The notes under the pieces: model-generated
The model's database searches: none
What the model was told of the DNA's origin: nothing
The model's input: the letters and a program-made list of their open reading frames with translations, nothing else
Part shown: one piece after another, positions 8,122 to 55,808 of the stretch
Numbering within the stretch: the stretch's first letter is position 1
How the letters are laid out: each line of letters opens with the position of its first letter
Translations under genes and position numbers: made by a program
Origin: Candidatus Hydrogenedentota bacterium
GTDB taxonomy: Bacteria; Hydrogenedentota; Hydrogenedentia; Hydrogenedentales; SLHB01
Assembly (NCBI GenBank): GCA_963668025.2
Contig: CAXXTH010000019.1
Coordinates: 64,001-128,000, forward strand
Reading direction: 5' to 3'
Length of the DNA stretch: 64,000 bases

Positions 8122-9065
8122 AGCGAAGCGTACAGCGTGAACTGGCGCTGCATCTATTTGTGGGTTCTTTTGCCTTCTTGGCGCTAGTGCCGTTTTTTTT
8201 CGTGGCCAACAACTCGTTCCGCACCAACATGGAGATGTACCGGTCCTTTTTCGGTGCGCCAAACGCCATAAAAGGCATGGTGCGCTCGGCGGGCGATATG
8301 CTGTTAAACAAGGGCGGGATGTCAGCAAGCCAGGATGGGACTATGAACTATTATGAATCGCCGCGTGAGTCCCTTATGGGGTACACGCGGATGGCGGCGA
8401 AGAATTACTTGCTGGCATGGAAAGCCCTCAAGTTCTACCTGCTCAATTCTTTTTTCGTATGCAGCGTGACTGCTTGCGGAGTGGCGCTGCTGGGTTCTCT
8501 ATCAGCGTACGTATTAGCGCGTTATCGATTTCCCGGGGGGCATGCCGTCTTTTTTTATATTATCGCCACCATGATGTTCCCTGGCGTGCTCACGCTGGTT
8601 CCCTCCTTCCTGCTGGCGAAGCAACTGGGCTTGCTTAATAGCTACGCGGGCCTCATCCTGCCTTATATCGCAGGAGGGCAGGTGTTCGCCACATTCGTGT
8701 TCAAGAGCTTTTTCGACGGCCTTCCCGAGGAGCTGTTCGAATCCGCGAGGATAGACGGCGCGGGGCATGCGCGCCTGTATGTCCATATTGTCCTTCCCTT
8801 GTCCAAGCCCGTTTTTGCCGTCGTCATGATTATGAGCGTCATCGGCACCTGGAATAATTTTCTCTGGCCTTTCATCGTGAATACGGATGAGCAGTATCAC
8901 GTCATCGCTTCCGGCCTATATGTCATGGCGAATTCCGCCGCCGCCGCCAACTATGGCACCTTATTTGCCGCTTATGTGCTATCGAGCGTCCCGCTGCTTA
9001 TTCTTTTTGCCTACGCGACGAGGCCGTTTGTCGAAGGCGTCACCTCCGGGGCGTTCAAGGCATAA
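8118..9065 (+). CDS. Carbohydrate ABC transporter permease (MalG/UgpE-like)
   Basis: ATGA overlap; LPEELFESARIDGA, WNNFLWP, C-terminal FVEGVTSGAFKA. Confidence 0.9.
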   Translation: MKRSVQRELALHLFVGSFAFLALVPFFFVANNSFRTNMEMYRSFFGAPNAIKGMVRSAGDMLLNKGGMSASQDGTMNYYESPRESLMGYTRMAAKNYLLAWKALKFYLLNSFFVCSVTACGVALLGSLSAYVLARYRFPGGHAVFFYIIATMMFPGVLTLVPSFLLAKQLGLLNSYAGLILPYIAGGQVFATFVFKSFFDGLPEELFESARIDGAGHARLYVHIVLPLSKPVFAVVMIMSVIGTWNNFLWPFIVNTDEQYHVIASGLYVMANSAAAANYGTLFAAYVLSSVPLLILFAYATRPFVEGVTSGAFKA

Positions 9066-9300
9066 AGAACGTGATGGATGGATTAACGCCTAAGCGTACA
9101 TGGGCAAAGGTGGCGGTAATATGCGTGATTCATGAGATTGTTCCTGTCCCACTCCCTGTCCGGCGGTTTCGGAAGAAAAGCTGGCGCTTGTAATGACATA
9201 AAGGCTCATTCTACACTTCCTATACGGGACATGCGCTGCCATTGGGGATAGAGTGTATAATTTGATAGAATCATGGCGGAAGCATTAGGGAGTGTACACG

Positions 9301-10506
9301 ATGCCAGAATTTACCTATGTCGCGCGAACACGAGATGGTAAAAAGCAAACCGGCAGCATGAGCGCCGAAAACCGGCAGTCGCTCATGCGCACCCTCCAAA
9401 CCCGGGGACTCGTTCCCGAAAAGGTGGAAGTGAAAGGCGCAAGGACCCGTTCGAGGCGGGGCCCGAAAGTCAAATCCACGGAGATACTGGTGTTCACGCG
9501 CCAGCTTTCGACCATTGTGAATGCGGGCTTGCCTCTGCTGCAGGGCTTGGACATCCTCTCCGAGCAAACCGAAGACCGGCGCTTCGGCAGCGTCATGGAA
9601 CAAATCGCCCAGGATGTGGAGGGCGGCGAATCCTTTTCGGAATCCCTGCGTAAACATCCGCGCATATTCAGTGATTTGTATGTCAGCATGGTGCGCTCCG
9701 GCGAGATAAGCGGCAATCTGGATGGCATCCTGCTTCAATTGGCGGATTACATGGAGTCTATGGAAGAACTGAAACGCCGGATTAAGTCCGCCATGACTTA
9801 CCCGGTTGTTGCGTTCTCGATGATCATCCTCATCGCCGCAGGCCTTATTATGTTCGTTGTGCCGCAGTTTGGCGAAATATACGCAGGTTTTGGCCAAGCG
9901 CTGCCCTTGCCCACCCAGATGCTGATCTTGGTCAGCGATGTGCTCCGCAGTTTGTATGCGTTTGTTGTCGCCGCCGCAGGTATCGCTATTGTGTTTGCTA
10001 TCCGGCTCTACGGGCGCACTGAAACCGGGCGGTATAATCTGGATGCGATCAAGCTTCGGCTCCCGGTATTTGGAAAATTATTGCGTAAAGTGGCCATCAG
10101 CCGCTTTACCCGCACCCTCAGCACCCTGACCCGCAGCGGCGTGGCCATCCTCGCCGCCCTTGAAATCGCAGAACGCACTTCTGGCAATGAGGTCTTCGCT
10201 CGGGTGGTGCGCGGTGCGAGCGACTGCGTGCGAAAGGGTGAAACGCTCGCTGATCCGCTCGCCCGTAGCGGTGAATTCCCTTCCATTGTGACCCGCATGA
10301 TTGGCGTTGGCGAAAAGACTGGCGCCCTCGAACAAATGCTCAGCAAGATTTCCGATTTCTATGATTCCGAAGTGAAAGCGGCCATTGACGGCCTAACAAG
10401 CTTAATCGAACCTATCTTGATTATGCTCATGGGCATCGTGGTGGGCAGTATTGTTATTGCGCTTTTCCTGCCTATTCTCAAGCTATCGACCCTCGTACAG
10501 CAATAA
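9301..10506 (+). CDS. pilC: Type IV pilus / type II secretion platform protein PilC/GspF (no partner genes nearby)
   Basis: FTRQLSTIVNAGLPL, GEISGNLD, SAMTYP, GEKTGALEQML, LIEPILI. Confidence 0.88.
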   Translation: MPEFTYVARTRDGKKQTGSMSAENRQSLMRTLQTRGLVPEKVEVKGARTRSRRGPKVKSTEILVFTRQLSTIVNAGLPLLQGLDILSEQTEDRRFGSVMEQIAQDVEGGESFSESLRKHPRIFSDLYVSMVRSGEISGNLDGILLQLADYMESMEELKRRIKSAMTYPVVAFSMIILIAAGLIMFVVPQFGEIYAGFGQALPLPTQMLILVSDVLRSLYAFVVAAAGIAIVFAIRLYGRTETGRYNLDAIKLRLPVFGKLLRKVAISRFTRTLSTLTRSGVAILAALEIAERTSGNEVFARVVRGASDCVRKGETLADPLARSGEFPSIVTRMIGVGEKTGALEQMLSKISDFYDSEVKAAIDGLTSLIEPILIMLMGIVVGSIVIALFLPILKLSTLVQQ

Positions 10507-10522
10507 GCCTGATTCGCATCCA

Positions 10523-10565
10523 AGCCAGTCCTGAGAGCCTATAGTGCTCGCGGGACTGGCCTTTT
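10523..10565 (+). terminator. Probable intrinsic terminator after pilC
   Basis: GCCAGTCC...GGACTGGC stem followed by CTTTT. Confidence 0.55.
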
Positions 10566-10895
10566 CATGTGGCTGCCGCTATTCCGCTTTTTTACTTCGA
10601 TAAGCTCGAGCAAGAGAACGTTTCTATCATCTGCATTTGCTCTATTTAGGTGTATGGCCATTTCGGGAACAGGCATCGCTCTGTGCGTGATCGGTCTCGC
10701 TAGCCTTTCGATAGGGCAATTTATCTCGGGGAGCTTTTTCTCAATATACAAGGGCTTACTTGTCATATCGCCGGGCGATTGTAGGCATTAAGTGCTTTAT
10801 TTGTATAGTGTTATGGCATAAAACACTATAAAAACCGCTCCGGGCGAATCAATAACGGAGGATTGTACCGCCATGAAAGAAGGAAAAAAAACTTC

Positions 10896-44047: not shown

Positions 44048-46483
44048 ATGAATCATCGGCATGGGATGTGGTGGGTAATCGGTGTAGGAGTTGCGGCCAT
44101 GTGCGCCACACTAATGTCCCCTGCTTTCGGGCAAACAAGCCCAACCGGCTCGGATGGGCCATCGGCCTCTAGTGTCACAACCGACATACCAGGCGGTGAA
44201 CAAGGCCAGGGCGCCGAACAAGGCCAGGGCGGCTCGACCGTACAAACAGGGGAATCTCCGCCAGCGCCTCGCCCGACCGTTAAAGCCGTACGCGCCACGA
44301 GCAGCGGCGCCCGCTCCCAAGGCAAAGAAGGCTTCGACGCCAGTTTGTTCAATCCGATTGAATGGCCTGAGATTCCCGATGAAGGCAAGCGCATGACGTG
44401 GACATCCGCTGGCGCGCCCGTGCCCGTGGTTCAACTCGCCGACGCCATCGCCGTGGCGACCAATTGGAACATCAGCACCTCCAAGGCCCTGGAAGAAGAG
44501 CAGATCCGCGTGTGGGCCACCAATGTGACCCCACGTGAACTGCTTAAAATCATGAAAAATTTCGGCATCTATTATGATTGGGATCCTACCATCAAGCTCC
44601 TGCGCCTGATGACGGTGGAAGAACACCTTAAAGCAAAATATGGCTCCATCTCCGAGGATGTATTCGAGATCAAACACGCCAAAGTCCAGGATATCGAAAA
44701 TATCCTCACCTCTCTTCTCTCGGAAAAAGGAAAGATCGTCGTAGATCCCCGCACCGGGCATGCCATGGTGTGGGATACGCCGGACAACTTGAAAGTCATG
44801 AAAGACACCCTCGAACGGGTAGACAAACCGCTCAAGGAAGCTGTTTTCCACTTGAAGCATATGGATGCGGACAGCGTGGTCGAGAACCTCACGGATGTCA
44901 TGTCCGAGGTCGGATATGCCCATGCGGACCAGCGCTCGAACTCGATTATCGTCGTCGACCTCCCTTCGCGCCAGGAGAAAATCGGCGACATTATCGCGGC
45001 GCTTGACCAGCCGCTCGAAACACGCACCTGGACTCTAAATTATCTGGAGCCTAAAGATGCGCTCGACCGGATCGGCAATCTGGTGCCTGAGGAAATGGGC
45101 CCCTCCTCGACAGACGAAAAAACCCACCAAATCAGCGTAACGGCCATTCCCGCGCGCCTTGAAGAAATCGACAAAATGCTCAAGGATTGGGATGTGGCCC
45201 GCAAGCAAGTGCAGATTCAGGCATATCTCGTCCTGGCGGATTCAAACATTGCCCGGCAGCTTGGCGTCAATTGGAATTACTTTGACGAGAAAAGCGGCTC
45301 GTCCTTCGCGTTACAGAACGGAGCGGCCTCTCCGGATTACTCGGTGCAATCTGGTGAAGGCCAGCGCCTGACCATTGGCACGCTGCCATACCAGGTGCCT
45401 CTCGTGAATTTCTGGACGGGCGAGGCGTTGAAGGATGCGGATGGCAACACCATCCTCGATCCGGAGTTTAAAGGCAACCGCATCAGCGCGGTCATAAAAC
45501 TCCTCGAAGACAACAACGTCGCGAAGGTGCTTTCCAGCCCGCGCGTCACGGTGATGGATGGCGAAGAGGCGAAATTCGAGGATACGCGAGATCGGCCGTA
45601 TCAAACGAGCGGCTACTCGTCTTACAATAATAACAATAATAACAACAACAGTAATTATTACAGCAATGTGATTCCGATGTCTGTTCAATTTGTCAATGTG
45701 GGCACTATCTTGAATGTGACGCCTCGCATCAATGAAGAACAGAACATCGTGATGGAGATCAGCGCGGAAGACAGCGACGCGACGGATGAAACCATTATCG
45801 TGGGCGATCAAGAGAGCACCGTGCCCAGCAAGAGTAAAAAAACTGCCGAAACCATCGTCATGGTGCATGACGGCCAGACGATCGTACTTGGCGGCTTGCG
45901 CACGACTCGCGCGGAAGATGACCTGAACAAGGTGCCGGTTCTCGGCGATGTGCCTCTGCTGAAACACCTCTTCCGCACATCCGACCGTTCGAGCCAGCAG
46001 CGCGATATCATGATCTTCCTCACGCCCACGATTTCGGATGAATTCACCAAACAAGAAGCGGACCGCCTGGCGCAGTTTGATGCGGATTTGGCTAAAAACG
46101 TGCGGCATAAAGAAAAAGACATCAAGGGGCGCGCTGAAGACAAGATTGCAAGCGGGAAAAATGAGATCATGCTCGCGGTCGGCCAATCGGGTGCGATGTA
46201 CTCCGACGGGAAACCGATGGTCATGGCGGATCTGGATGAGCTTCTAGCTGGCCAGGATTCCCCCAAATCGGTGACGCTCGTTATCCGCAGCCACCCGGAA
46301 ACGCCAGCGGAAGTGCTTGATGGCATCCAAACCTTGGCGGATCAATATGGCGTTAAGGTAGAACACGATCAGCGTATATCGGTGTTTGTGCCCTCGCCGC
46401 GCCCGGATAAGTCTGCGGAAGAAGCAGCGCCTGCCGCCGTGGAACAGAACCTGGAGCCGCTGGGCGAATCGCCTGAGTCTTGA
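44048..46483 (+). CDS. gspD: Secretin GspD with an extra C-terminal ExbD-like domain
   Basis: Signal peptide, N-domain repeats, QVQIQA, LSSPRV, GTILNVTPRIN, DGQTIVLGGL, KVPVLGDVPLL, IFLTPTI. Confidence 0.88.
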   Translation: MNHRHGMWWVIGVGVAAMCATLMSPAFGQTSPTGSDGPSASSVTTDIPGGEQGQGAEQGQGGSTVQTGESPPAPRPTVKAVRATSSGARSQGKEGFDASLFNPIEWPEIPDEGKRMTWTSAGAPVPVVQLADAIAVATNWNISTSKALEEEQIRVWATNVTPRELLKIMKNFGIYYDWDPTIKLLRLMTVEEHLKAKYGSISEDVFEIKHAKVQDIENILTSLLSEKGKIVVDPRTGHAMVWDTPDNLKVMKDTLERVDKPLKEAVFHLKHMDADSVVENLTDVMSEVGYAHADQRSNSIIVVDLPSRQEKIGDIIAALDQPLETRTWTLNYLEPKDALDRIGNLVPEEMGPSSTDEKTHQISVTAIPARLEEIDKMLKDWDVARKQVQIQAYLVLADSNIARQLGVNWNYFDEKSGSSFALQNGAASPDYSVQSGEGQRLTIGTLPYQVPLVNFWTGEALKDADGNTILDPEFKGNRISAVIKLLEDNNVAKVLSSPRVTVMDGEEAKFEDTRDRPYQTSGYSSYNNNNNNNNSNYYSNVIPMSVQFVNVGTILNVTPRINEEQNIVMEISAEDSDATDETIIVGDQESTVPSKSKKTAETIVMVHDGQTIVLGGLRTTRAEDDLNKVPVLGDVPLLKHLFRTSDRSSQQRDIMIFLTPTISDEFTKQEADRLAQFDADLAKNVRHKEKDIKGRAEDKIASGKNEIMLAVGQSGAMYSDGKPMVMADLDELLAGQDSPKSVTLVIRSHPETPAEVLDGIQTLADQYGVKVEHDQRISVFVPSPRPDKSAEEAAPAAVEQNLEPLGESPES

Positions 46484-46542
46484 TTTGCACACATTTACTT
46501 GGGATATCTCTCAGGGAAGCCTTTATGGCTTCCCTGAGTGCG

Positions 46543-47628
46543 TTATACCTGTTCCCTGGGAGTTGGGAATTTCGTAGCGCAGGGCGCGGAGCCAAGGGTC
46601 TTGTCCAGCAAGGGCATGCTGGCATGCCCAGGCGCAAACACCGCCAAGATGCGTTCACGCACCAACGGAAGGGAAGCCTCCGGCGCTCCCGGCAACGAGA
46701 TCTGCCCGCCTGCCATGCAATAATGCCCGCCTCCTGTGCCTATCCGGCGCACTACGCGCCGCACCTTGGCCGCGACATTGCCGCGCATATCCAGCGCCCG
46801 CGCGGACAAATGGATCGTCCCCCCGCAATCGCCATAGCAAACGGAGGTGCGCATGCCTTCCAAGCGCAGCATCAATTCCGCCACTTCCGCAAAAATATCC
46901 GGATTCCCAGCCTTGCGCACCAAGGTAATAATCGCCGAACCCGCGACCTCCGCATTCGATAGGCCGCATCGGAGCATGGAAAAATAACTCGGGGGCACGG
47001 GCGCACGGCGAATATGCGCCATGCGCTTGCGGTCCATCAATGGCACGAGCGCCGTAAAGGCTTCTATGTCGGCGGGACAGGTCTCGCGGCCCAATTCCTG
47101 GGTATCCGAACGGATGCCGTAATATAGAGCCGTGGCCAGGCGGGCATCCGGCTCGATGCGCGCCGCCAGCATATACTCATAAAGAATCGTCGAGGTGGCT
47201 CCGTAAAAAGGCCGGATGTCACATAATTCCGCGCTCCAATGCGCTTGCGGGGGCCGGATGTGATGGTCAATCACGACATCCGCCGTACGGCTGGCCTCCA
47301 ACACGTTGTTGCCGGAATACGGCTGGGTGTCCACCAAGCAGATCGTCTTGAAGCCCGAAAGCTCGCCCGGCTCGAACCGGCGCAATTTGATGCCCAATTC
47401 CTCGACCATCGCCCGGTTTTCCGCACGCCCCAGCATGCCGCCGTAGCCGATCTCGACCCGCCGCCCGAGGCATTGGCTGGCGATCTCCCGAATGGCCGCG
47501 GCGCTGGCGATGGCGTCCGGATCGGGGCTGTTCTGCATCAACACCAGCGCCCGCCCACGCCGCCCGCATATAGCGAGCAGCTTCTCCAAATTCGCCGATG
47601 AACGCTCGATATCTAGTCCTTCCGGCAT
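46543..47628 (-). CDS. DHH family phosphoesterase
   Basis: PDPDA, LVDTQP, IDHH, GATST, GIRSDT, GTGGGH...AGG. Confidence 0.88.
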   Translation of the reverse strand: MPEGLDIERSSANLEKLLAICGRRGRALVLMQNSPDPDAIASAAAIREIASQCLGRRVEIGYGGMLGRAENRAMVEELGIKLRRFEPGELSGFKTICLVDTQPYSGNNVLEASRTADVVIDHHIRPPQAHWSAELCDIRPFYGATSTILYEYMLAARIEPDARLATALYYGIRSDTQELGRETCPADIEAFTALVPLMDRKRMAHIRRAPVPPSYFSMLRCGLSNAEVAGSAIITLVRKAGNPDIFAEVAELMLRLEGMRTSVCYGDCGGTIHLSARALDMRGNVAAKVRRVVRRIGTGGGHYCMAGGQISLPGAPEASLPLVRERILAVFAPGHASMPLLDKTLGSAPCATKFPTPREQV

Positions 47629-48029
47629 AATTGGCCGCCTCTCCACTCGCCCAACATGACTTTATGCGCTAAGATTTTTCGCGGCAATCACTTCTAGACC
47701 AGCTTTGGCTACCCGCCACGGATTCTTGATAAACGGATTCAAACCATCGATATGCTCGACAGTTCCATACCTGCATCCTTTCCCGTAACCACACCCAGTA
47801 TACCAGACCATCGGGCGATATGCCCGCCACGAGGACAGCTCGAATCGCCCGGTAAACAGAGACAAACCTATTGTCATCCACTAAAACAGCATATTCACGC
47901 CCAGCCCTAGAGACCTCCTTGTTTCTCAAAATGCCACCCCATAATCATCCTCGCGATAGCGGGGCTCCAAAAATGGACTTGGCAAGCCGAAACAAGCAAA
48001 TACCAGCAAGATGCACCAAAGAGGACAAG

Positions 48030-48114
48030 AAAGCGGTAGCAAGCTACCGCACTCCATACGTGCTCTAAGTTTTTTTGTGTAGCTATTTGGAGTGCGGCAG
48101 CTTGCTGCCGCTTT
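48030..48114. repeat. REPIN-like inverted REP doublet
   Basis: AAAGCGGTAGCAAGCTACCGCACTCCA ... TGGAGTGCGGCAGCTTGCTGCCGCTTT. Confidence 0.7.
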
Positions 48115-48222
48115 GGGGGTGCGGCTCCCACTTGAATGTCCTTTTTCGGTTTTATGCCGATGCAAATGACACGGAGCGCATTTTTTGGAAGGCCTCGAAA
48201 GCGATGCTCCAATGGAAATGCC

Positions 48223-48250
48223 CTGGATTCCCGCTTTCGCGGGAATGACA
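48223..48250. repeat. REP-like hairpin CTGGATTCCCGCTTTCGCGGGAATGACA
   Basis: ATTCCCGC-TTTC-GCGGGAAT palindrome; a homologous interrupted copy lies at 33980-34165. Confidence 0.7.
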
Positions 48251-48443
48251 CAGTGTTAGTACATTGCATTTCCGCCGCACTCTCATGTCCGGCGCTCTGG
48301 GGAGAGGCTGGCTCCACTGGCGCGGCCCCCAGAAGCTTGTTTGGAGCATGTACACCCATCAGTGGAAGGCGGCGGGAAGACGAATCACACTGGGGCATAG
48401 GAATCGCCAACTATGAGTGCCGCCGGAAGCCCTGGAATCCCGC

Positions 48444-48509
48444 TATGGCGAATCAATCTGCAAGGGCGGAAGGCACTCCTCGGTTGGGATGCCTTTTTTG
48501 TGCGTGGTG
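48444..48509. repeat. ~65-bp direct repeat, copy 1 (copy 2 at 49265-49329)
   Basis: GCGAATCAATCT...GGGCGGAAGGCACTCCTCGGTTGGGATGCCT shared. Confidence 0.8.
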
Positions 48510-48529
48510 TTCTGCATTTCCGGAATCTT

Positions 48530-49039
48530 CTACCAGAAGAACTGCCTCGGGGGGTACTGTCCTGTGAACAACCTCTCTCCGTAGCAAATGGCGCGTTTGC
48601 AGCGCCAATGATCGTGGGCATCGCAAGACGCTGTCAGGACTTGGTAGGCGCTCTTGGCGTCGTTTTCACCAAGCTTAAACGCAGCCTGCATCAGTAAAAA
48701 CAGAGCTTCGCTGCGAGATGATTGTGGTGTCACTGCTTGGGCTAATGTCAGGGCTTCCGTTAGCGCTTTACGTGCCTCAGAAGCGAGCCCTCTTTCTGCC
48801 AATGCGGAGATCTCCCACGCGCGAACCGCCGACCTCTTGTAATCGTCATCACAATCCGCTGCGGCCTTTCCCGCCTCGACTGCAAACGGGATCGGGTCGG
48901 AATCGGCGTATCTGGCAACCCACGACAGCGCCTGGGCTCGAAACCATGGGTCCGCTATCTCGCGTGCTTGAATCAACGCCTCACGGGGACTCACCTTGGC
49001 GAGATTGCATACCTCGTCGCGTTGTGTCGTCGCGCTCAT
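48530..49039 (-). CDS. Hypothetical alpha-helical repeat protein (cassette-like gene)
   Basis: GGAGG RBS, Ala-rich helical repeats; followed by an attC R''-like GCAGAAC. Confidence 0.7.
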   Translation of the reverse strand: MSATTQRDEVCNLAKVSPREALIQAREIADPWFRAQALSWVARYADSDPIPFAVEAGKAAADCDDDYKRSAVRAWEISALAERGLASEARKALTEALTLAQAVTPQSSRSEALFLLMQAAFKLGENDAKSAYQVLTASCDAHDHWRCKRAICYGERLFTGQYPPRQFFW

Positions 49040-49127
49040 GCCTTGCCTCCAAAATGACAAACAGGAATCAATACTAGAAACAGCGCCGAAAATAACACGA
49101 CGAGAATGCTTAGGAGTGTATGCATAT

Positions 49128-49186
49128 GGCTAACCTCATGGATCGAGCGCGGCGGTCACACCGTCGCCAGAAGCCGGTTGTTCGAC
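49128..49186 (-). mobile_element. attC site (59 bp)
   Basis: Minus strand GTCGAAC-AACCGG...-GTTAGCC with an internal imperfect palindrome. Confidence 0.6.
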
Positions 49187-49326
49187 GTCCGTTCCTGGCG
49201 TATAGATCATCAATACTTACCATAAGGCTTCAGTGGCGTTCATCTCACAGAACTCTATCATCGGTATAGCGAATCAATCTACAGGGCGGAAGGCACTCCT
49301 CGGTTGGGATGCCTCCTTTGCGCGTG

Positions 49327-49407
49327 ATGCAACACCCTTACCTCACGACAGGTGAAGGACGCTATCTGCGTCGGCCTTTACTTGTCTTGTGCAGATGGTT
49401 GTTGGGC
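49327..49407 (-). mobile_element. attC site (81 bp)
   Basis: Minus strand GCCCAAC AACCATCTGCAC ... GTGAGGTAAGGGT GTTGCAT, overlapping the 3' end of the DUF4145 gene. Confidence 0.65.
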
Positions 49408-50058
49408 TTCGTCAGTCTTTGCTCTTCGCTTCTGTAATGACTCAAAGCGTTTTGTGAGTGAGAACACGTAGATCAGAATGGCCTCGGTGAAGTCGAGGAC
49501 ATCGCGTGCATCTTCTTTGGTAACCGGGGTATCAATGTCGTGGGCTGCCTCATTCCCAATCAGGCGCACTTGGTGCGCCCAGTTCAATAAACGAGAGTCA
49601 ATATGTCCCTCTTCATGAAGTTTCCCGAGGCGTGCGTTTAGATCTCGGCCCTTGGTGTCGAAAATCTTGCAGATAGCCTCCAAACATTTTCGTGACATCA
49701 GAACACACGGCTCGAACAGGGAGGCATGTAGCGATCGGGCAGCCTGGTCGTACGCTGTCTTGACGCTCTCCGGAAGCTTCTCTGGAAGCAGTTTGGATTC
49801 ACCGGGGTAGAGAACTGTCTCTTCAGTGAAGTTCTCGAATTCACCAGGGATGCCATAGAGGGACTGCCTCACCAAGAAAGGTTGGTTGCAGCGACGACAA
49901 AGACAGACCGAGTAACGCTCCCCGTGGTACTCCGTGTCAACCTCGTCAATTGGGTTGACCGCGTCGCTACGAAACTCGGCGAATCCCTCAGCGATCACCT
50001 TCGCCTCTACAAGGATGTTGCACTGCGGGCAAAAGACGTCGAAACTTGATTCACCCAT
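49378..50058 (-). CDS. DUF4145 (HEPN-like) protein with N-terminal Zn ribbon; cassette gene
   Basis: AGGAGA RBS, CPQC...CRRC, MSRKCLEAIC, VRLIGNEAAH (R-x3-N-x3-H). Confidence 0.82.
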   Translation of the reverse strand: MGESSFDVFCPQCNILVEAKVIAEGFAEFRSDAVNPIDEVDTEYHGERYSVCLCRRCNQPFLVRQSLYGIPGEFENFTEETVLYPGESKLLPEKLPESVKTAYDQAARSLHASLFEPCVLMSRKCLEAICKIFDTKGRDLNARLGKLHEEGHIDSRLLNWAHQVRLIGNEAAHDIDTPVTKEDARDVLDFTEAILIYVFSLTKRFESLQKRRAKTDEAQQPSAQDK

Positions 50059-50081
50059 CTGGTCATCTCTCCTCTTTCCCT

Positions 50082-50207
50082 TCTCAACGACAATGGTGAG
50101 CGACCACTGCCGACAGGAACAGTGGAGCGCACCAAGCACTCTCGAATGCCAGACCAGTATCGAGCGGAAGCGCTGGGTGGCGATTCCGCTCCACCCGCTG
50201 GTTAACC
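50082..50207 (-). mobile_element. attC site (126 bp)
   Basis: Minus strand GGTTAAC CAGCGGGTGGAGCGGA ... TCGCTCACC ATTGTC GTTGAGA. An upstream membrane-protein fragment reads through it (NQRVERN...VAHHCR*). Confidence 0.65.
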
Positions 50208-50393
50208 GTTCTGCGCGCGCGTGCGCACATAGACCCGAAGCAAAAGCCCCCACATGACAACAATTGTGAAAACCGATAGGATAATCGCTAACAGGGTCGG
50301 TACGCCGGTAATTAGTCTCGAGTTAATGCTATCCGTTGGGGCTGCCGTCCACGGCGGCCTTACCAGAGTTGCGTTCGATCCAGTTGTTGGCGT

Positions 50394-51257
50394 TTACCAA
50401 TTTCCCGATGTCTTCAGATCATCCCTCATGGTCTCGACCTGGTTCCCGAGCTCGTTCAGCGAGGCAGTAAGCTCAGCATGGTTGTCCTTCGGGCTGTATA
50501 GGATTACTTTCAGGTTCATCGTGTCCTCGACGATACGGATTACATCGGCATGTAGGGAACCCTTCGGGATTACGAGGACATGACTCCGTGACGAAGGGTG
50601 TCGGAAGAATGCGTCCTCGAGCAGCAGAGCAACATCCGGATCGCTCACGCCACACCCGAGGAAGACAAACGTATGAGTCATTGCGAGGGCGTCGAGCACT
50701 TGGTAGAAGAGGCGATACTTATTCCTGGCCTTTGCATACTCCGACCGTGTGAAGATCATACGGTCCGGAGAGTCGATTGATCCGTGGATTTTGAGAACCA
50801 GCCGACCGTCTTCACGTATTGCATCAGTAACATCAGGATCGAAGTGATGTTTCACCACGATCGATGCGTTTGCCGCATGGTTCGCATAGACCTCGTAGAT
50901 TTTGTCGAAGTTCGGCGTAGCAACGATTCGCGAGTCAAGTCGGAAGATGTATTCATGGATCGGCGCGTATTGATAGCCGGGCGTGAGGAATTCGTCGCGC
51001 ACCAACTGTATAAAGTCATCTCTCCTGAGGCGATCTTTGATCACTTCACAGGCCGTCAGATAGTCCTTCTGATTGAGGAGCTTCCGTATGTGGGCGTTGG
51101 GATTCACACTGGCACATGCATCACGCAAGAAGGTCTCCCAGGTCTTCGGTATGCGTCCCATGGTGTTCGTTGAATTGCGTGAGATCCCTGCTCCAAGAAA
51201 GATCACGGATCTGCGGCGAGCGACGTCCTTGATGAGCTGTTGAGGCCAGATGATCAT
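50394..51257 (-). CDS. Stand-alone SIR2-like (SIR2_2) NAD+-cleaving domain protein
   Basis: FLGAGIS, TPNFD, LKIHGS, FVFLGCGVSDPD; ATGA overlap with the parA-like gene. Confidence 0.88.
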   Translation of the reverse strand: MIIWPQQLIKDVARRRSVIFLGAGISRNSTNTMGRIPKTWETFLRDACASVNPNAHIRKLLNQKDYLTACEVIKDRLRRDDFIQLVRDEFLTPGYQYAPIHEYIFRLDSRIVATPNFDKIYEVYANHAANASIVVKHHFDPDVTDAIREDGRLVLKIHGSIDSPDRMIFTRSEYAKARNKYRLFYQVLDALAMTHTFVFLGCGVSDPDVALLLEDAFFRHPSSRSHVLVIPKGSLHADVIRIVEDTMNLKVILYSPKDNHAELTASLNELGNQVETMRDDLKTSGNW

Positions 51258-52261
51258 ATGTTTGCCTCCAAATTGGCGGCCAGTTGCTCGGCGATCTTTG
51301 AGTAGATCCGCTCGGTATCTTTCACTTTCGCAAAATGCGCACCCACAACACCATCGGAACCTTTGAGCTTGAAGATTGGAGCGTGCGCCGATTGCGAGAG
51401 GGGAACCACGCTATGTAGGTTTGGAATTTCTCCCAGCTTGTAGAGAGCCGCCGATCCTAAAGACGAGAAATTCTCTATCAATTCCTTCTTGATCAGCGCA
51501 GGACCATTCCGGAGTATCTTGTCATAAGCCGATACAGGTTGGCGAACTCCACGTACACGCTTGGCAGTATATTGCTGTGTGATGTAGCCTATGAACTGAA
51601 GCTGCCAGGAGACGGGTTCGCTTGCAACAGCGTAGGGCTGTCCTTCTTCAGTCTCGTAATCGGCCAGTCCCTTCTCCAGTCCACGGCGCCACTTCTTGAG
51701 CGCAGTGGCGATATTCGATATTGCCATGATGCTGAAAATGTCGGACGACATTGGCATGAGAAAGAAATCAGACGCAATGAGCACCGCGCGGTTGAGTGCA
51801 CCTAAGGATGGACCGACATCAAACAGGACAATGTCGTAACCGATCATTTGTTGAAGTAAACCTTTGAAGACCAATGATGTCTGTAGTCCGCGAGGGTCGC
51901 CTCCAGCGCCACTTGTCCAATCCGAAGCAAGGAGGTCTTCGGATAGGGCAAGCCTTGGATCCCCCGGGACAAGATCGAATCCGAACCGTGGAGTAGTCAC
52001 AGGTGTGTATGTGGTCTCCATGTACCCCTTACCACGGCGTAGTGGATCGAAGAAGGCATCGATCGTTGCGCCTCGCGGAGAGGCGTACAGTTCCTGCACA
52101 TCGCTTTCTGGTAGAGAGTAGACTGTGGCGTTACATTGTGGGTCCGCGTCGACGACCAGGACGCGTTTTCCTAGAACGAGCTTGAAGTAAGCTCCGAGAT
52201 TGCACAGGAACGTAGTCTTCCCGACACCGCCTTTGTTGTTAAATACCACGATACTTTTCAC
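51254..52261 (-). CDS. ParA/MinD-family ATPase (no parB)
   Basis: AAGGAGG RBS; deviant Walker A NNKGGVGKTT, VDADPQCN, DVGPSLG. Confidence 0.9.
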   Translation of the reverse strand: MKSIVVFNNKGGVGKTTFLCNLGAYFKLVLGKRVLVVDADPQCNATVYSLPESDVQELYASPRGATIDAFFDPLRRGKGYMETTYTPVTTPRFGFDLVPGDPRLALSEDLLASDWTSGAGGDPRGLQTSLVFKGLLQQMIGYDIVLFDVGPSLGALNRAVLIASDFFLMPMSSDIFSIMAISNIATALKKWRRGLEKGLADYETEEGQPYAVASEPVSWQLQFIGYITQQYTAKRVRGVRQPVSAYDKILRNGPALIKKELIENFSSLGSAALYKLGEIPNLHSVVPLSQSAHAPIFKLKGSDGVVGAHFAKVKDTERIYSKIAEQLAANLEANI

Positions 52262-52756
52262 ATATGCCTCCTTGTTCTGCCTCTTGCCAGCAGTGGTTAT
52301 ATAGTTTCGTCATAGCATCTTTAGGTCGCAACATCGCGTCAAAAGATCCCTCCGACCGCGCTGGCATAAAGCCTGTATTTGCAGAGCATTGAATCATGCT
52401 CTGCAATGGACGCAGGGGGGATATATGGTTTCTGTGTAACACCCTTTCGTTCTCCGCTCTACAAATTGTCCACGGGACTCCTGACGCCCTTGACGCTATC
52501 GAGAAGTGGTGTGGCGGATGAATGCGGGAGAATAAGTTGTGTTGAAACAGGATTGAGATCTTCTCCATAAGGCCGTTCCCCTTGGGCAGCCCGGAGGGCT
52601 GCACTGTATTCTCCGTGTTCCGATGTCGGCATAGTATACCCCTATATGGCACGGAGGCAACAGGCGGGGGTGTTGAAGACAGCCAAACAAGCGCGGCTCC
52701 AGCGCCCTCGCCGGCCACCAGACGAAATGTAATGCTCTAGCGGAATGAAGCAAGAG

Positions 52757-52990
52757 TTTTTTTAGACATGATTTACAAGATTAACAAGATTGGACAAGAT
52801 CGCAACAATTTTTTTATTAAGCAAACCATGAAAAGAGCGAGCATGTTTTTCTTCTTGTAGCGGAATTGCCATCAAAAAATCTTGTCAATCTTGTAAATCA
52901 TGTCTAAAAAATCTCCCATAAATGGAAGTTTGCCATGTATTCGCGGTTCAAAAATCGGCCCAAGGCTTTTACTCCAGATGGCTAAATTAT
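52757..52990 (-). repeat. Dispersed composite repeat, copy B (reverse orientation), with ACAAGATT 9-mer inverted arms
   Basis: TTTAGACATGATTTACAAGATT ... AATCTTGTAAATCATGTCTAAA; ends in ACTCCAGATGGCTAAAT, matching 14339-14360 in reverse. Confidence 0.65.
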
Positions 52991-53127
52991 TGCGACGAAA
53001 TATAGCGTATCAATACCGTTGCAGCGCAATAAGCAAGGGCAAAAAGACAGCAGATGCTACTTCAGGTGGCTAACGTATTGCCGATATTTTTGCATGCAAA
53101 TCCACTTCGATGCTTTTTTAGGGGATA

Positions 53128-54186
53128 TCACACATTAAACCGGAACAGCACGATGTCCCCATCTTGCATGATATATTCTTTGCCTTCGAGGCGGACATGG
53201 CCCGCTTCGCGCGCCTTGGCCATCGAGCCCGCCGCGATGAAGTCTTTGTAGGCCACGGTTTCCGAGCGGATGAATCCGCGCTGGATGTCGCTGTGGATCA
53301 CGCCTGCCGCCTCGACAGCCTTCATACCCTTGCGGATGGTCCAGGCGCGCACTTCCGGCTCGCCCGCCGTGAGGAAGCTCATCAGGCCCAGCATACTGTA
53401 GGCCGTCTGGAGAAACCGCGTGCGCGATTCTTCGCCCAGGCCCAGTTCCTCCCGAAATGCGGCGCGCTCTTCTTCGGGCAGGCGCGACACTTCCATCTCC
53501 ATTTCGCCGCACAGTGCGATCAGGGCCTGGCCCGACTCCGCCGCATAGGCATCCAGGCCGGAAGGCTCATCGTTACCGATGGACTCTTCGCCGTAGTTTC
53601 CCAAGAGCATCAAGGGCTTTTGAGAGAGGAACTCGAAACCTTTGATCTCCTTCGCTTCTTGGGGGGATAGCTCGAGCGTCCGCAGCGAACGCCCCGCCTC
53701 GATATGCTCGCGGGCGCGAAGCAACACCTCGAATTCCGTGTCCTTCTTGTTTTCCTTCGCCATGCGTTCGAGGCGTTTCTCGATGATGATCAAATCGGCG
53801 ATCTGAAGCTCTTCCTCGAGGGCCTTGCAGTCGCGGACGGGATTCACCTCCCCCACGGGATGCATGACTTCTTCATTCTCGAAGGCGCGCACCACGTGGA
53901 CCAGGGCGTCCACATTCTTGAGCAGCGTCATGGCGGCGGCATCGAGGGCCTTTTCCTGGCCGCCCGATTCGCTCGGGGCCACATCGACGAACTGGAATTC
54001 GGCGTAGGTGATTTTCTTCGGCTTATGGATCTGGGCGAGCCGGTCCACCCGTTCATCCGGCACTTTCAGCACCGCCACATTGGCGTCGCGGCTGCCAAAA
54101 GCGCCCACTTCCGCGTGGGCCCCGGTCAATGCGTTAAACACAGTGGTCTTGCCCGAACGGGCGAATCCGATAATGCCAGCTTTCAT
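53128..54186 (-). CDS. ychF: Obg-family ATPase YchF
   Basis: G1 GFARSGKTT, VPDERVD, HVVRAF, TGS domain AGVIHSDIQRGFI...EGKEYIMQDGD...FRFNV. Confidence 0.9.
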   Translation of the reverse strand: MKAGIIGFARSGKTTVFNALTGAHAEVGAFGSRDANVAVLKVPDERVDRLAQIHKPKKITYAEFQFVDVAPSESGGQEKALDAAAMTLLKNVDALVHVVRAFENEEVMHPVGEVNPVRDCKALEEELQIADLIIIEKRLERMAKENKKDTEFEVLLRAREHIEAGRSLRTLELSPQEAKEIKGFEFLSQKPLMLLGNYGEESIGNDEPSGLDAYAAESGQALIALCGEMEMEVSRLPEEERAAFREELGLGEESRTRFLQTAYSMLGLMSFLTAGEPEVRAWTIRKGMKAVEAAGVIHSDIQRGFIRSETVAYKDFIAAGSMAKAREAGHVRLEGKEYIMQDGDIVLFRFNV

Positions 54187-54371
54187 GGTTCTTCCTTCCG
54201 CTTTGTAAAAAAAACATGGTAACAGTGGAGGAGCGGAAAGCGCAATACGGCTGCAATTACCCAAATCCGCACGTAACAATTATAATGGCTACAAACACGA
54301 AGCCAGCAGGTGATGTGCAACGCGGCGCACATGAAAAAACGGCATCGTATTGCCCCGGAAACTCGGGCGCG

Positions 54372-55808
54372 CTATTCGTAGCTTTTTCGCATGGTCGTCG
54401 AGAGGATGCCCATGGCTTCACGGTATTTCGTGACCGTTCTCCGGGCGATGTTGATATCTTGCTTCTTGAGCAAATCCGCGATTTTTTGATCGCTCAGCGG
54501 CTTCTGTTTGTTTTCCTCATCCACGAGTTTCTTGATCATGGACTGGACGCTCTTCGAGGATTGCTCTTCTTCTCCGCTATCACGGCGCAAGCCGGGTGAG
54601 AAGAAATATTTCATCTCGAAAAGACCCTGGGGCGTCTGCATATATTTCCCTCGGGTGGTCCGGCTCACGGTGGCTTCGTGGACGCCTACTTTGTCCGCGA
54701 TTTCCTGCAAGGTGAGGGGCTTGATGGCTTCGACGCCCCGCTCGAAGAAATCCTGCTGCACATCCACGATGGCTTGGGCGATGCGCAGAATCGTATGCTG
54801 GCGCTGCTGGATGTTGCGGATGAGCCATTTGGCCGACTCGACCTTTTCGCGGATGTATTGTTTCTCTTCGCGCCCCAGGTTTTTATCACGGGCCATTTGC
54901 TGATACCGGCCATTGATGCGCAGTTCGGGGATCGTTTCATTCGAGAGATAGGCGGCAAATTCGCCGGATTCCTCGTCTTTCTCGACGATCACATCGGGAG
55001 TCACATACTGCGGCGGATCAGAGGAATACTCGAGGCCGGGCCAGGGGTCCAGCGTGGCGAGCATCTTCTGTAATTCCTCGACGCGTTCCGGGGTGATCTG
55101 CATGGCCTTCGCGATTTTGAGGATTTGGCGGCGCTCGAGTTCTTCAAGATGCTCGGACACCAGCACACGCAATTCGTTTTCGTCTGGAAACTCGACATTG
55201 AGCTGGATTAATAAGCACTCGATGATATCCCGCGCGCCCACGCCCGTAGGCTCGAAATGCTGGATGCGGTGCAAGATACGCTCGACCTGCTCCGGCGTAG
55301 CGCCGAGTTCGCCCGCGATTTCATCGATGGAACCCGTGAAATACCCCTTGTCATTGATATCGCCGATAAGGCGTTCGCCAATGGCGTAGCCTTGTTCATC
55401 CATTGACAGCATGCGCAATTGAGTGAGCAGCATGGATGTGAACGATTCTTCCCGCGTAATCGAGTTTTCGTAGTAATCCCGGCGCGCGTCGGCGTCGGGA
55501 TTGCGGCTCAGGTCGCGGCCTTCCTTCGCGTAGTCATTCCATCGCTCATGGTAGTCATCCAAGTCGAAGCCCACATCGTCGAAGGTCTCCGTGTCCTTCG
55601 TCGTGGTGGTCGCCTGCGGCATCTCGCGGGGCGGTTCTGGCTCCTTGGCTTGTTGGTCGAGAAGCGGATTGGTTTCGAGTTCCTGCTGGATATAGTTTTC
55701 AAGCTCCAGCCCGGAGAGCTGCAAGATTTGGATCGCTTGCTGCATCTTCTGGGTCAGCATCAGGCGCTGGGTTTGCGTCTGCGCAAGCCGGTGCTCCATG
55801 TTCATCAT
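54372..55808 (-). CDS. rpoN: RNA polymerase sigma-54 factor
   Basis: Gln-rich region I, EPTGVGAR, HEATVSR, RpoN box ARRTVTKYRE. Confidence 0.96.
   Translation of the reverse strand: MMNMEHRLAQTQTQRLMLTQKMQQAIQILQLSGLELENYIQQELETNPLLDQQAKEPEPPREMPQATTTTKDTETFDDVGFDLDDYHERWNDYAKEGRDLSRNPDADARRDYYENSITREESFTSMLLTQLRMLSMDEQGYAIGERLIGDINDKGYFTGSIDEIAGELGATPEQVERILHRIQHFEPTGVGARDIIECLLIQLNVEFPDENELRVLVSEHLEELERRQILKIAKAMQITPERVEELQKMLATLDPWPGLEYSSDPPQYVTPDVIVEKDEESGEFAAYLSNETIPELRINGRYQQMARDKNLGREEKQYIREKVESAKWLIRNIQQRQHTILRIAQAIVDVQQDFFERGVEAIKPLTLQEIADKVGVHEATVSRTTRGKYMQTPQGLFEMKYFFSPGLRRDSGEEEQSSKSVQSMIKKLVDEENKQKPLSDQKIADLLKKQDINIARRTVTKYREAMGILSTTMRKSYE

Follow-up and report, generated by a model that had tools for sequence, protein, structure and literature searches.

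A ParA-like ATPase inherited together with a stand-alone SIR2 protein: a probable, undescribed phage-defence pair from Candidatus Hydrogenedentota

SIR2 NADases recur as suicide effectors of bacterial immunity, with vertebrate relatives in FAM118, and the systems that deploy them differ in how the effector is controlled. ThsA, DSR2, Avs5 and KomC have sensor parts of their own (SLOG, a long C-terminal domain, STAND) or a signal-making partner. The closest named system to the one dealt with here is SIR2-HerA (Nezha), whose ATPase is unrelated, and which, in the main text of Rousset et al. 2022 (PMC9122126), is placed on mobile elements that include the P2/P4 hotspots. What follows concerns two adjacent genes, one for a ParA-family ATPase and one for a SIR2_2 protein, in a stretch of 64,000 nucleotides from a Candidatus Hydrogenedentota bacterium (assembly GCA_963668025.2, contig CAXXTH010000019.1, positions 64,001 to 128,000 of the forward strand), referred to throughout as the window. 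The pair, 1.9 kb as a whole, is probably an undescribed phage-defence system, protection being something that we infer. Control of a SIR2 protein by an ATPase of ParA/MinD fold is not described in the literature and databases searched. The relevant features are:

51254-52261, minus strand: ATPase gene, an open reading frame (ORF) of 335 amino acids with a GTG start and AAGGAGG ahead of it as ribosome-binding site
50394-51257, minus strand: SIR2_2 gene, an ORF of 287 amino acids
51254-51257, minus strand: ATGA stop/start overlap of the ATPase and SIR2 genes, read in the sequence; translational coupling
52262-52721, minus strand: non-coding leader upstream of the ATPase gene, containing a dispersed repeat (52288-52497) and a weak promoter-like site (52660-52633)

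A first-pass annotation, made from the letters of the window, had described a ParA-family ATPase with an intact KGGVGKTT, joined by an ATGA overlap to a stand-alone SIR2_2 domain that keeps GAGxS, TxNxD and KxHG, and this description is borne out. The N-terminus of the ATPase contains NNKGGVGKTT and the protein matches Pfam AAA_31 (9.8e-26) and CbiA (1.3e-14); the overlap is present at the four nucleotides listed; and the SIR2 motifs read GAGIS (residues 22-26), TPNFD (114-118) and KIHG (156-159), in a protein whose sole Pfam family is SIR2_2 (4.3e-22, 79 bits against a cut-off of 24.5).

Whether the two genes travel together was examined from both sides. In contigs representing one genome per species, a search seeded with the SIR2 protein gave an ATPase gene directly upstream on the same strand at 16 of 16 loci. 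The search seeded with the ATPase kept 80 metagenome loci, 70 of them with at least 880 nucleotides downstream, and SIR2 is directly downstream in 69 of the 70; on the short contigs of this set the start of SIR2 is visible in 4 of 9. The exception, L122, has an integrase after an ATPase that groups with another subfamily in the tree described below. Co-occurrence of homologues, on which the first-pass annotation had let its idea of a two-gene system depend, is therefore upheld in both search directions. Spacing is tight: among 81 pairs, 60 overlap (29 of them by 4 nucleotides), 19 are separated by gaps of 9 nucleotides or fewer and 2 by gaps of more than 30. The distance matrices of the two proteins (83 pairs) correlate with r = 0.82, a value reached in none of 999 permutations, though the statistic is inflated by related rows. 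No third conserved gene emerged from an all-against-all comparison of neighbours at the 16 genome loci and at 85 loci with neighbours, the matches being limited to synteny of two congeneric Dryocola loci and to near-duplicate contigs. The ATPase and the SIR2 protein are inherited as one unit. Two departures from the usual layout may be mentioned in passing. At positions 8994-10801 of locus L016, from a Halioglobus metagenome-assembled genome (MAG), the pair aligns in pieces across frames and looks like a decaying copy, and in the 640-amino-acid P0241 a ParA-like ATPase is joined to SIR2, with the latter's own Met retained at residue 351.

By its modelled structure the SIR2 protein belongs to the class of NAD+-destroying anti-phage enzymes. 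The prediction has a predicted local distance difference test score (pLDDT) of 89, and its best Foldseek matches are DSR2, ThsA, Avs5, FAM118B and KomC, with template modelling (TM) scores of 0.65-0.76. A profile of the family finds ThsA (1.8e-13) and DSR2 (1.1e-11) among PDB sequences, as well as FAM118B and KomC. Residues G22, G24, S26, N116, D118, K156, H158 and G159 are invariant in 20 homologues, and the conserved residues align with catalytic positions of DSR2 and ThsA: His158 with the site of the mutation in the DSR2 H171A PDB entries and the invariant Asn with that of TTNYD in DSR2. The SIR2_2 fold, GxGxS loop and catalytic Asn/His that mark a defence-type sirtuin are all present. Titles of the matched structure entries describe relatives activated by oligomerisation or filament formation, and the protein is, by analogy with these enzymes, a putative NAD+ hydrolase effector. 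The close family comprises 182 clusters (50% identity) at E 1e-30 or better and is about 285-300 amino acids long in nearly all of the 150 full-length clusters listed.

Matches of the protein to PADLOC models (ThsA, LmuA, Dsr1, PDC-S25, Avs5) are confined to the SIR2 part of each model. Two of the systems concerned were considered as possible homes for the pair and rejected. For Thoeris, the ThsA match covers positions 12-206 of a 478-position model, there is no second Pfam domain and none of the four island proteins scanned has a TIR domain. For DSR1/DSR2, the Dsr1 match covers 13-210 of 1227, the SIR2 family here being mostly about 285-300 amino acids long.

The ATPase is a distinct, uncharacterised subfamily of the ParA/MinD fold with a deviant Walker A, of the type represented by PDB 3PG5. 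Its profile covers 3PG5 (the uncharacterised DIP2308) over the full length at 4e-65, and with the predicted structure (pLDDT 89) Foldseek places 3PG5 first, at 32% identity, and Soj second. The full ParA catalytic set is there, K10, K15, D38, D40 and D148 being invariant in 20 homologues, in a protein about 80 residues longer than ParA/Soj and with inserts specific to the family. Its best NCBIfam match is to ParA_partition, at 58 bits against a cut-off of 180 and over residues 4-46 only; the NCBIfam partition and MinD models all score far below their cut-offs. PADLOC v2 recognises nothing in it past the Walker A, and the names carried by its relatives in the ESM Atlas are just the generic ParA, CobQ and AAA. 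In a tree of 58 rows, built by a quick search and sampling the SIR2-linked ATPases at every second row (41 of 82, with the window's own added), the Soj of the same genome and a plasmid ParA split from the family with support 95, both of these outgroup branches being long, and a branch with support 82 sets the SIR2-linked ATPases apart on one side. The nearest relatives in the tree are from one gammaproteobacterial MAG and one archaeal MAG. The first-pass annotation had allowed that clustering with chromosome-partition Soj proteins would tell against a defence system; the tree keeps the ATPase apart from Soj.

Both families are large and length-conserved, with members in Aeromonas, Halomonas, Shewanella, Klebsiella, Xanthomonas, Omnitrophica, Peregrinibacteria and one archaeon, and the pair as such is spread over several bacterial phyla, with one archaeal MAG in addition. 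Eight plasmid records carry it (on a Spirosoma plasmid it comes after a DEAD/ResIII helicase and an AAA_21 ATPase), as does one IMG/VR contig. Within E. coli it is present in 12 of 5,426 complete genomes, the products being 51% (ATPase) and 46% (SIR2) identical to those of the window over their full length and the 4-nucleotide overlap being kept. All six of the twelve copies that were inspected lie directly beside a P2-type portal gene in a P2-like prophage, and in the four records whose stretch reached that far the other side holds the gpA replication endonuclease and a DinI-like gene. The gpA-gpQ locus of P2 is a hotspot of anti-phage systems, as set out in the main text of Rousset et al. 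2022 (PMC9122126); the E. coli orthologues, and not the window's own copy, are cargo of this locus. The other residents of the locus vary between the E. coli records, one of them being the PADLOC candidate PDC-S49. The main text of PMC9122126 does not name the cassette, its supplementary tables S2A, S5A and S5B standing apart from this statement. Closer to home, the other 134 genomes searched in the phylum lack the pair (present in 1 of 135). It is an accessory, horizontally mobile module, because it is absent from those genomes, is inserted between genes that are adjacent in relatives and has its nearest ATPase kin in a gammaproteobacterium and an archaeon.

Such a distribution also bears on the notion of a housekeeping pair, in which SIR2, as an NAD-dependent protein deacylase localised by the ATPase, would act on cellular targets. 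SIR2 proteins do include true deacylases, and some records of this family are named 'NAD-dependent protein deacylase' (P0120). However, the occurrence is patchy both in E. coli and in the phylum, relatives span bacterial phyla and an archaeal MAG, and the match is to SIR2_2, with structural neighbours that are anti-phage NADases and FAM118B, not CobB-type sirtuins, so that we hold this explanation to be very improbable.

Presence on plasmids and in P2-like prophages is what a maintenance or addiction module might also display: the ATPase would aid persistence of the prophage or plasmid, by positioning or by partition without a canonical ParB, and SIR2, toxin-like, would penalise loss, with no dedicated sensing of phage. 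The complete ParA catalytic set fits this, a potentially toxic enzyme tightly coupled to a partner resembles toxin-antitoxin logic, and putative partition systems are reported in the main text of PMC9122126 from the P2 hotspot of about a quarter of P2-like phages. Yet no ParB or other centromere-binding partner is near the pair in the window, at the 16 genome loci or at the 85 loci with neighbours, and there is no other conserved third gene. The earlier statement that parB is absent from the window proved correct, the single ParB_N match in the assembly (6.1 Mb searched) being on contig C3 at C3:155119-155394, beside the Soj-like gene of that contig. Plasmid pVPon1 carries a separate ParA/ParB besides the pair, and most copies, the window's included, are inserted singly in a chromosome, where there is no replicon to segregate. 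Membership of ParABS was rejected given the absence of an adjacent ParB, the scores below partition cut-offs and the branching off from Soj and plasmid ParA. The ATPase is in all likelihood not a partition ATPase, since it has no adjacent ParB, pVPon1 has its own ParA/ParB and the tree splits it from Soj and ParA; a maintenance or addiction module is unlikely.

A minority of loci has a further component. A type II-like DNA methyltransferase gene is directly upstream of the pair, overlapping or abutting it, at L105, L106, L109 and L110, is 149 nucleotides upstream at L108 and is directly downstream at L094 and L107, and is co-operonic with the pair in 7 of the 85 surveyed loci with neighbours; a methyltransferase is likewise upstream of the pair on a Salmonella megaplasmid. 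The methyltransferase-linked loci fall in divergent branches of the ATPase tree. In P0244 (665 amino acids, one cluster representative) SIR2 is fused in frame to a methyltransferase with an intact SPPY motif, 52% identical to that of L094. A methyltransferase in the operon of some divergent branches suggests that DNA is what the system inspects, methylation being the self mark in those branches. ParA-fold ATPases, as established for Soj and ParA, dimerise with ATP and bind DNA non-specifically. From these elements a surveillance akin to restriction-modification can be assembled, with the ATPase scanning DNA and firing SIR2 on unmodified DNA, and with the pair in the window relying on a distant methyltransferase or on another cue. 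Most loci, however, have no adjacent methyltransferase, the window and the E. coli prophage copies among them, and of the linked loci, restricted as they are to divergent branches, some have a possible restriction enzyme adjacent. As an account of the pair, methylation surveillance is quite unlikely.

Somewhat better than even confidence is placed in an abortive-infection system in which the ParA-like ATPase would serve as an ATP-dependent, and probably DNA-dependent, switch gating NAD+ hydrolysis by SIR2. With ATP the ATPase would dimerise or assemble on DNA, or on a DNA-protein complex made by the phage, and before infection would keep SIR2 inactive; with infection sensed, it would let SIR2 oligomerise and hydrolyse NAD+; and the ensuing loss of NAD+ would halt both the infected cell and the phage. 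The ATPase may either restrain SIR2 or activate it, the first-pass annotation having suggested a sensor or inhibitor like HerA in SIR2-HerA. The first-pass annotation's proposal of a self-contained, undescribed defence pair is sustained in so far as the linkage, the structural class of SIR2, the P2 hotspot and the want of a named match support it, and has to give up the integron setting in which it was framed (see below).

Several considerations weigh against a role in abortive infection and are best taken together. NADase activity, contact between ATPase and SIR2, the trigger and protection against phage are all matters of deduction. The P2 locus also carries non-defence cargo, the putative partition systems just mentioned being the example, and according to the main text of PMC9122126 eight further systems of the hotspot were tested, three of which were protective; the pair may be among those tested without effect. 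It is absent from 50,697 deposited phage records. Enrichment of defence genes in its vicinity is not evident by PADLOC and Pfam among 134 neighbouring ORFs at the 16 genome loci, where the Pfam families met most often are of the housekeeping kind (LysR 4, FdhE 2); PADLOC matches of neighbours amount to a handful of proteins, generic helicase and kinase models included. The fused P0241 and P0244 are single representatives and could be artefacts of frameshift or gene calling. At L105 and L106 an unannotated gene for 299 amino acids is just upstream of that for the methyltransferase and could be the latter's own restriction enzyme, so the link to the pair may there be one of neighbourhood, not function. 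(PDB sequence searches with two unannotated neighbour proteins gave no match.)

The ATPase has two paralogues in its own genome, each with a different partner. At C12:13511-15376 (L130 1012-2877, minus strand) a ParA-like ATPase of 369 amino acids is followed, after 7 nucleotides, by a 249-amino-acid RelA_SpoT protein, a candidate toxSAS-like effector, in a two-gene layout like that of the window pair; PADLOC v2 has no match for the RelA_SpoT protein. At C10:411531-413715 (L129 2532-4716, minus strand) a Schlafen AlbA_2/HATPase_c_4 protein precedes the paralogous ATPase. Among the 135 phylum genomes the RelA_SpoT pairing was found at 2 loci (L130, and L146 in G095) and the Schlafen pairing at 14 (L129 and L132-L144, in 12 genomes), the SIR2 pairing being limited to the present genome. 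In the Schlafen pairing a protein of about 400 amino acids overlaps the start of a ParA-like ATPase of about 335-345; this partner matches PADLOC models of Argonaute-associated proteins (1e-20) in which the same domains are joined to SIR2. It is typical of conflict systems that partners are exchanged around a single ATPase. Taken with the variants linked to a methyltransferase, the pairings of the paralogues suggest that this ATPase underlies a wider family of systems. A broader proposition, which we put forward tentatively and at somewhat less than even chances, is that 3PG5-type ATPases form an unrecognised sensor or switch family of conflict systems, a common chassis with exchangeable partners (a SIR2 NADase, a RelA/SpoT-like nucleotide pyrophosphokinase, a Schlafen/AlbA-HATPase protein) and, in some lineages, an operonic or fused methyltransferase providing a self mark. 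If true, immunity would have recruited a fold known for positioning DNA as a sensor of DNA that is foreign.

In the window the pair is part of a 5.5-kb insertion that separates two genes found next to each other in relatives. The insertion, here termed the island, and its surroundings comprise:

47647-53127, no strand: island (insertion), 5.5 kb between a DHH-family gene and ychF
46543-47646: DHH-family gene, island flank
53128-54279: ychF, island flank
52722-52995, no strand: dispersed repeat resembling a miniature inverted-repeat transposable element (MITE), with 38-nucleotide inverted ends at 52754-52791 and 52878-52915 that are 95% complementary
47930-48270, no strand: second dispersed repeat family, at the island's other end, with about 45 further matches in its own genome
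49378-50253, minus strand: DUF4145 gene with an N-terminal Cys-rich motif (Pfam DUF4145, 5.7e-19)

The DHH-family gene and ychF are on one contig in 12 genomes of the same family or order, with their aligned parts about 45-630 nucleotides apart. The coding part of the island has no match in any of 40 relatives and, at 48530-52261, is single copy in its own genome; the GC fraction is 0.46-0.52 within the island and 0.57-0.62 in the flanks. The inverted ends of the MITE-like repeat are rich in ACAAGATT, and dozens of full or partial copies are scattered through the genome. The repeat at the other end includes a 27-nucleotide inverted repeat (48030-48056 / 48088-48114), and pieces of it, 30-40 nucleotides long, recur in many related genomes. 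Direct repeats of 69 nucleotides at 48441-48509 and 49262-49329, 88% identical, 821 nucleotides apart and each with a short hairpin, bracket an ORF of 176 amino acids (48530-49060) whose one match is a weak HEAT-repeat.

Directly upstream of the ATPase is a dispersed repeat of about 200 nucleotides (52288-52497), with one further copy in its own genome at C23:403600. Copies in five related genomes (71-82% identity) are immediately 5' of unrelated genes, namely those for a GNAT protein, a sulfatase, the neighbour of an FGE-sulfatase, a DUF485/SSF transporter and a HAD hydrolase. That this stretch is a leader specific to the system was accordingly rejected; it may serve as a promoter or leader that is portable between genes, or be what is left of a mobile element. 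The promoter-like site at 52660-52633 scores 9 of 12, a scan for promoters and terminators at the locus of the pair gave a signal no better than that of shuffled sequences, and an Rfam scan of 46000-54500 returned just two chance matches to microRNA families, both sub-threshold.

On its other side the pair in the window adjoins the DUF4145 gene, which is PD-T7-4-like (PADLOC PD-T7-4, 1.9e-12) and matches PHROG 1305 at 3.2e-36 across its full length. It was listed from a GTG; homology begins at about residue 66 with a Met followed by the CxxC...CxxC motif, and the true start is probably near 50058, giving about 226 amino acids. No conservation of this gene beside the pair was seen at the loci surveyed elsewhere.

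The first-pass annotation had taken the pair for one integron cassette bounded by attC half-sites. Of that claim the quoted strings themselves stand, i.e. the one ending in GAGCCGCGCTTGTTTGGC at 52699-52682 and CGCCAAC at 50392-50386; their identity as attC is not confirmed by folding or consensus, and the cassette reading is not supported, there being no integrase, significant attC fold or array, and flanks made up of dispersed repeats. Against what we take to be the attC core consensus, RYYYAAC / GTTRRRY, CGCCAAC is off at 2 of 4 degenerate positions and GTTTGGC at 1. Folded as single-stranded DNA, 50254-50400 gives z scores of -0.27 and -1.32 and 52600-52730 of +0.59 and -0.48; out of 200 shuffles, 23 to 140 fold as well as the candidates. 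In the 140 nucleotides past the SIR2 stop an imperfect long hairpin can be drawn, pairing CGCCAAC with a downstream GTTAGCG (z -1.32, equalled by 23 of 200 shuffles), and each of these two heptamers misses that consensus at 2 positions. No integron integrase was found in the 6.1-Mb assembly, where the best TIGR02249 score is 81 bits against a cut-off of 265 and the matches are ordinary tyrosine recombinases; this absence is not absolute because the assembly is 93.75% complete. Repeated attC-like units or a cassette array are lacking in 46500-54500, the flanks of the island are MITE-like and the upstream string is about 420 nucleotides from the ATPase start, past a dispersed repeat. At 96 other loci neither a flanking gene that recurs nor an integron setting was seen, attC scans not having extended to these. 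Despite the heptamer-like strings and the drawable hairpin, an integron cassette is hardly credible.

As to novelty, PADLOC v2 assigns the pair to no named system, its SIR2 matches being at the level of the domain, and no description of a ParA+SIR2 system was found in the literature searched, a scope that takes in neither the supplementary tables of PMC9122126 nor those on operons in PMC13069673. The earlier view that the pair is not a named system holds within the coverage of these two sources of evidence. What may be new is a SIR2 NADase-type effector with a new kind of controller, though supplementary tables or newer databases may already list the pair. ParA proteins are well-understood ATP- and DNA-dependent switches and the pair is therefore tractable for studying how sensing of DNA is coupled to NAD+ depletion; as E. 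coli prophages carry copies at an anti-phage hotspot already in the literature, a direct test would be cheap.

In comparison with described proteins, the ATPase shares with ParA/Soj the signature lysine of the deviant Walker A, the DxDPQ switch motif and the Walker B Asp, and differs in that those work with a ParB partner and it has none. With DIP2308 of Corynebacterium diphtheriae (PDB 3PG5, a structural-genomics entry on which no paper was found) it shares its full length and the inserts relative to Soj. AhCobQ (PMC11856932) is a different ParA-fold protein of 264 amino acids and is not relevant to the pair. The SIR2 protein has in common with ThsA, DSR2, Avs5 and KomC the SIR2_2 fold and the aligned catalytic Asn and His, and is nearer to ThsA and DSR2 than to the 278-amino-acid SIR2 chains lower in the PDB list; in contrast to those four, with their sensor parts or signal-making partner, it is a bare domain whose only constant partner is a ParA-like ATPase. 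Membership of SIR2-HerA was rejected, as the partner matches only AAA_31, CbiA and the ParA fold, with no PADLOC HerA match. SIR2-HerA nevertheless has the same two-gene composition, an ATPase and a stand-alone SIR2 NADase-type effector, and the same presumed logic of an ATPase gating NAD+ depletion. Gene order and protein sizes differ, and where the ATPase of that system is a hexameric one of HerA/FtsK type, here it is of ParA/MinD fold with a deviant Walker A (AAA_31/CbiA).

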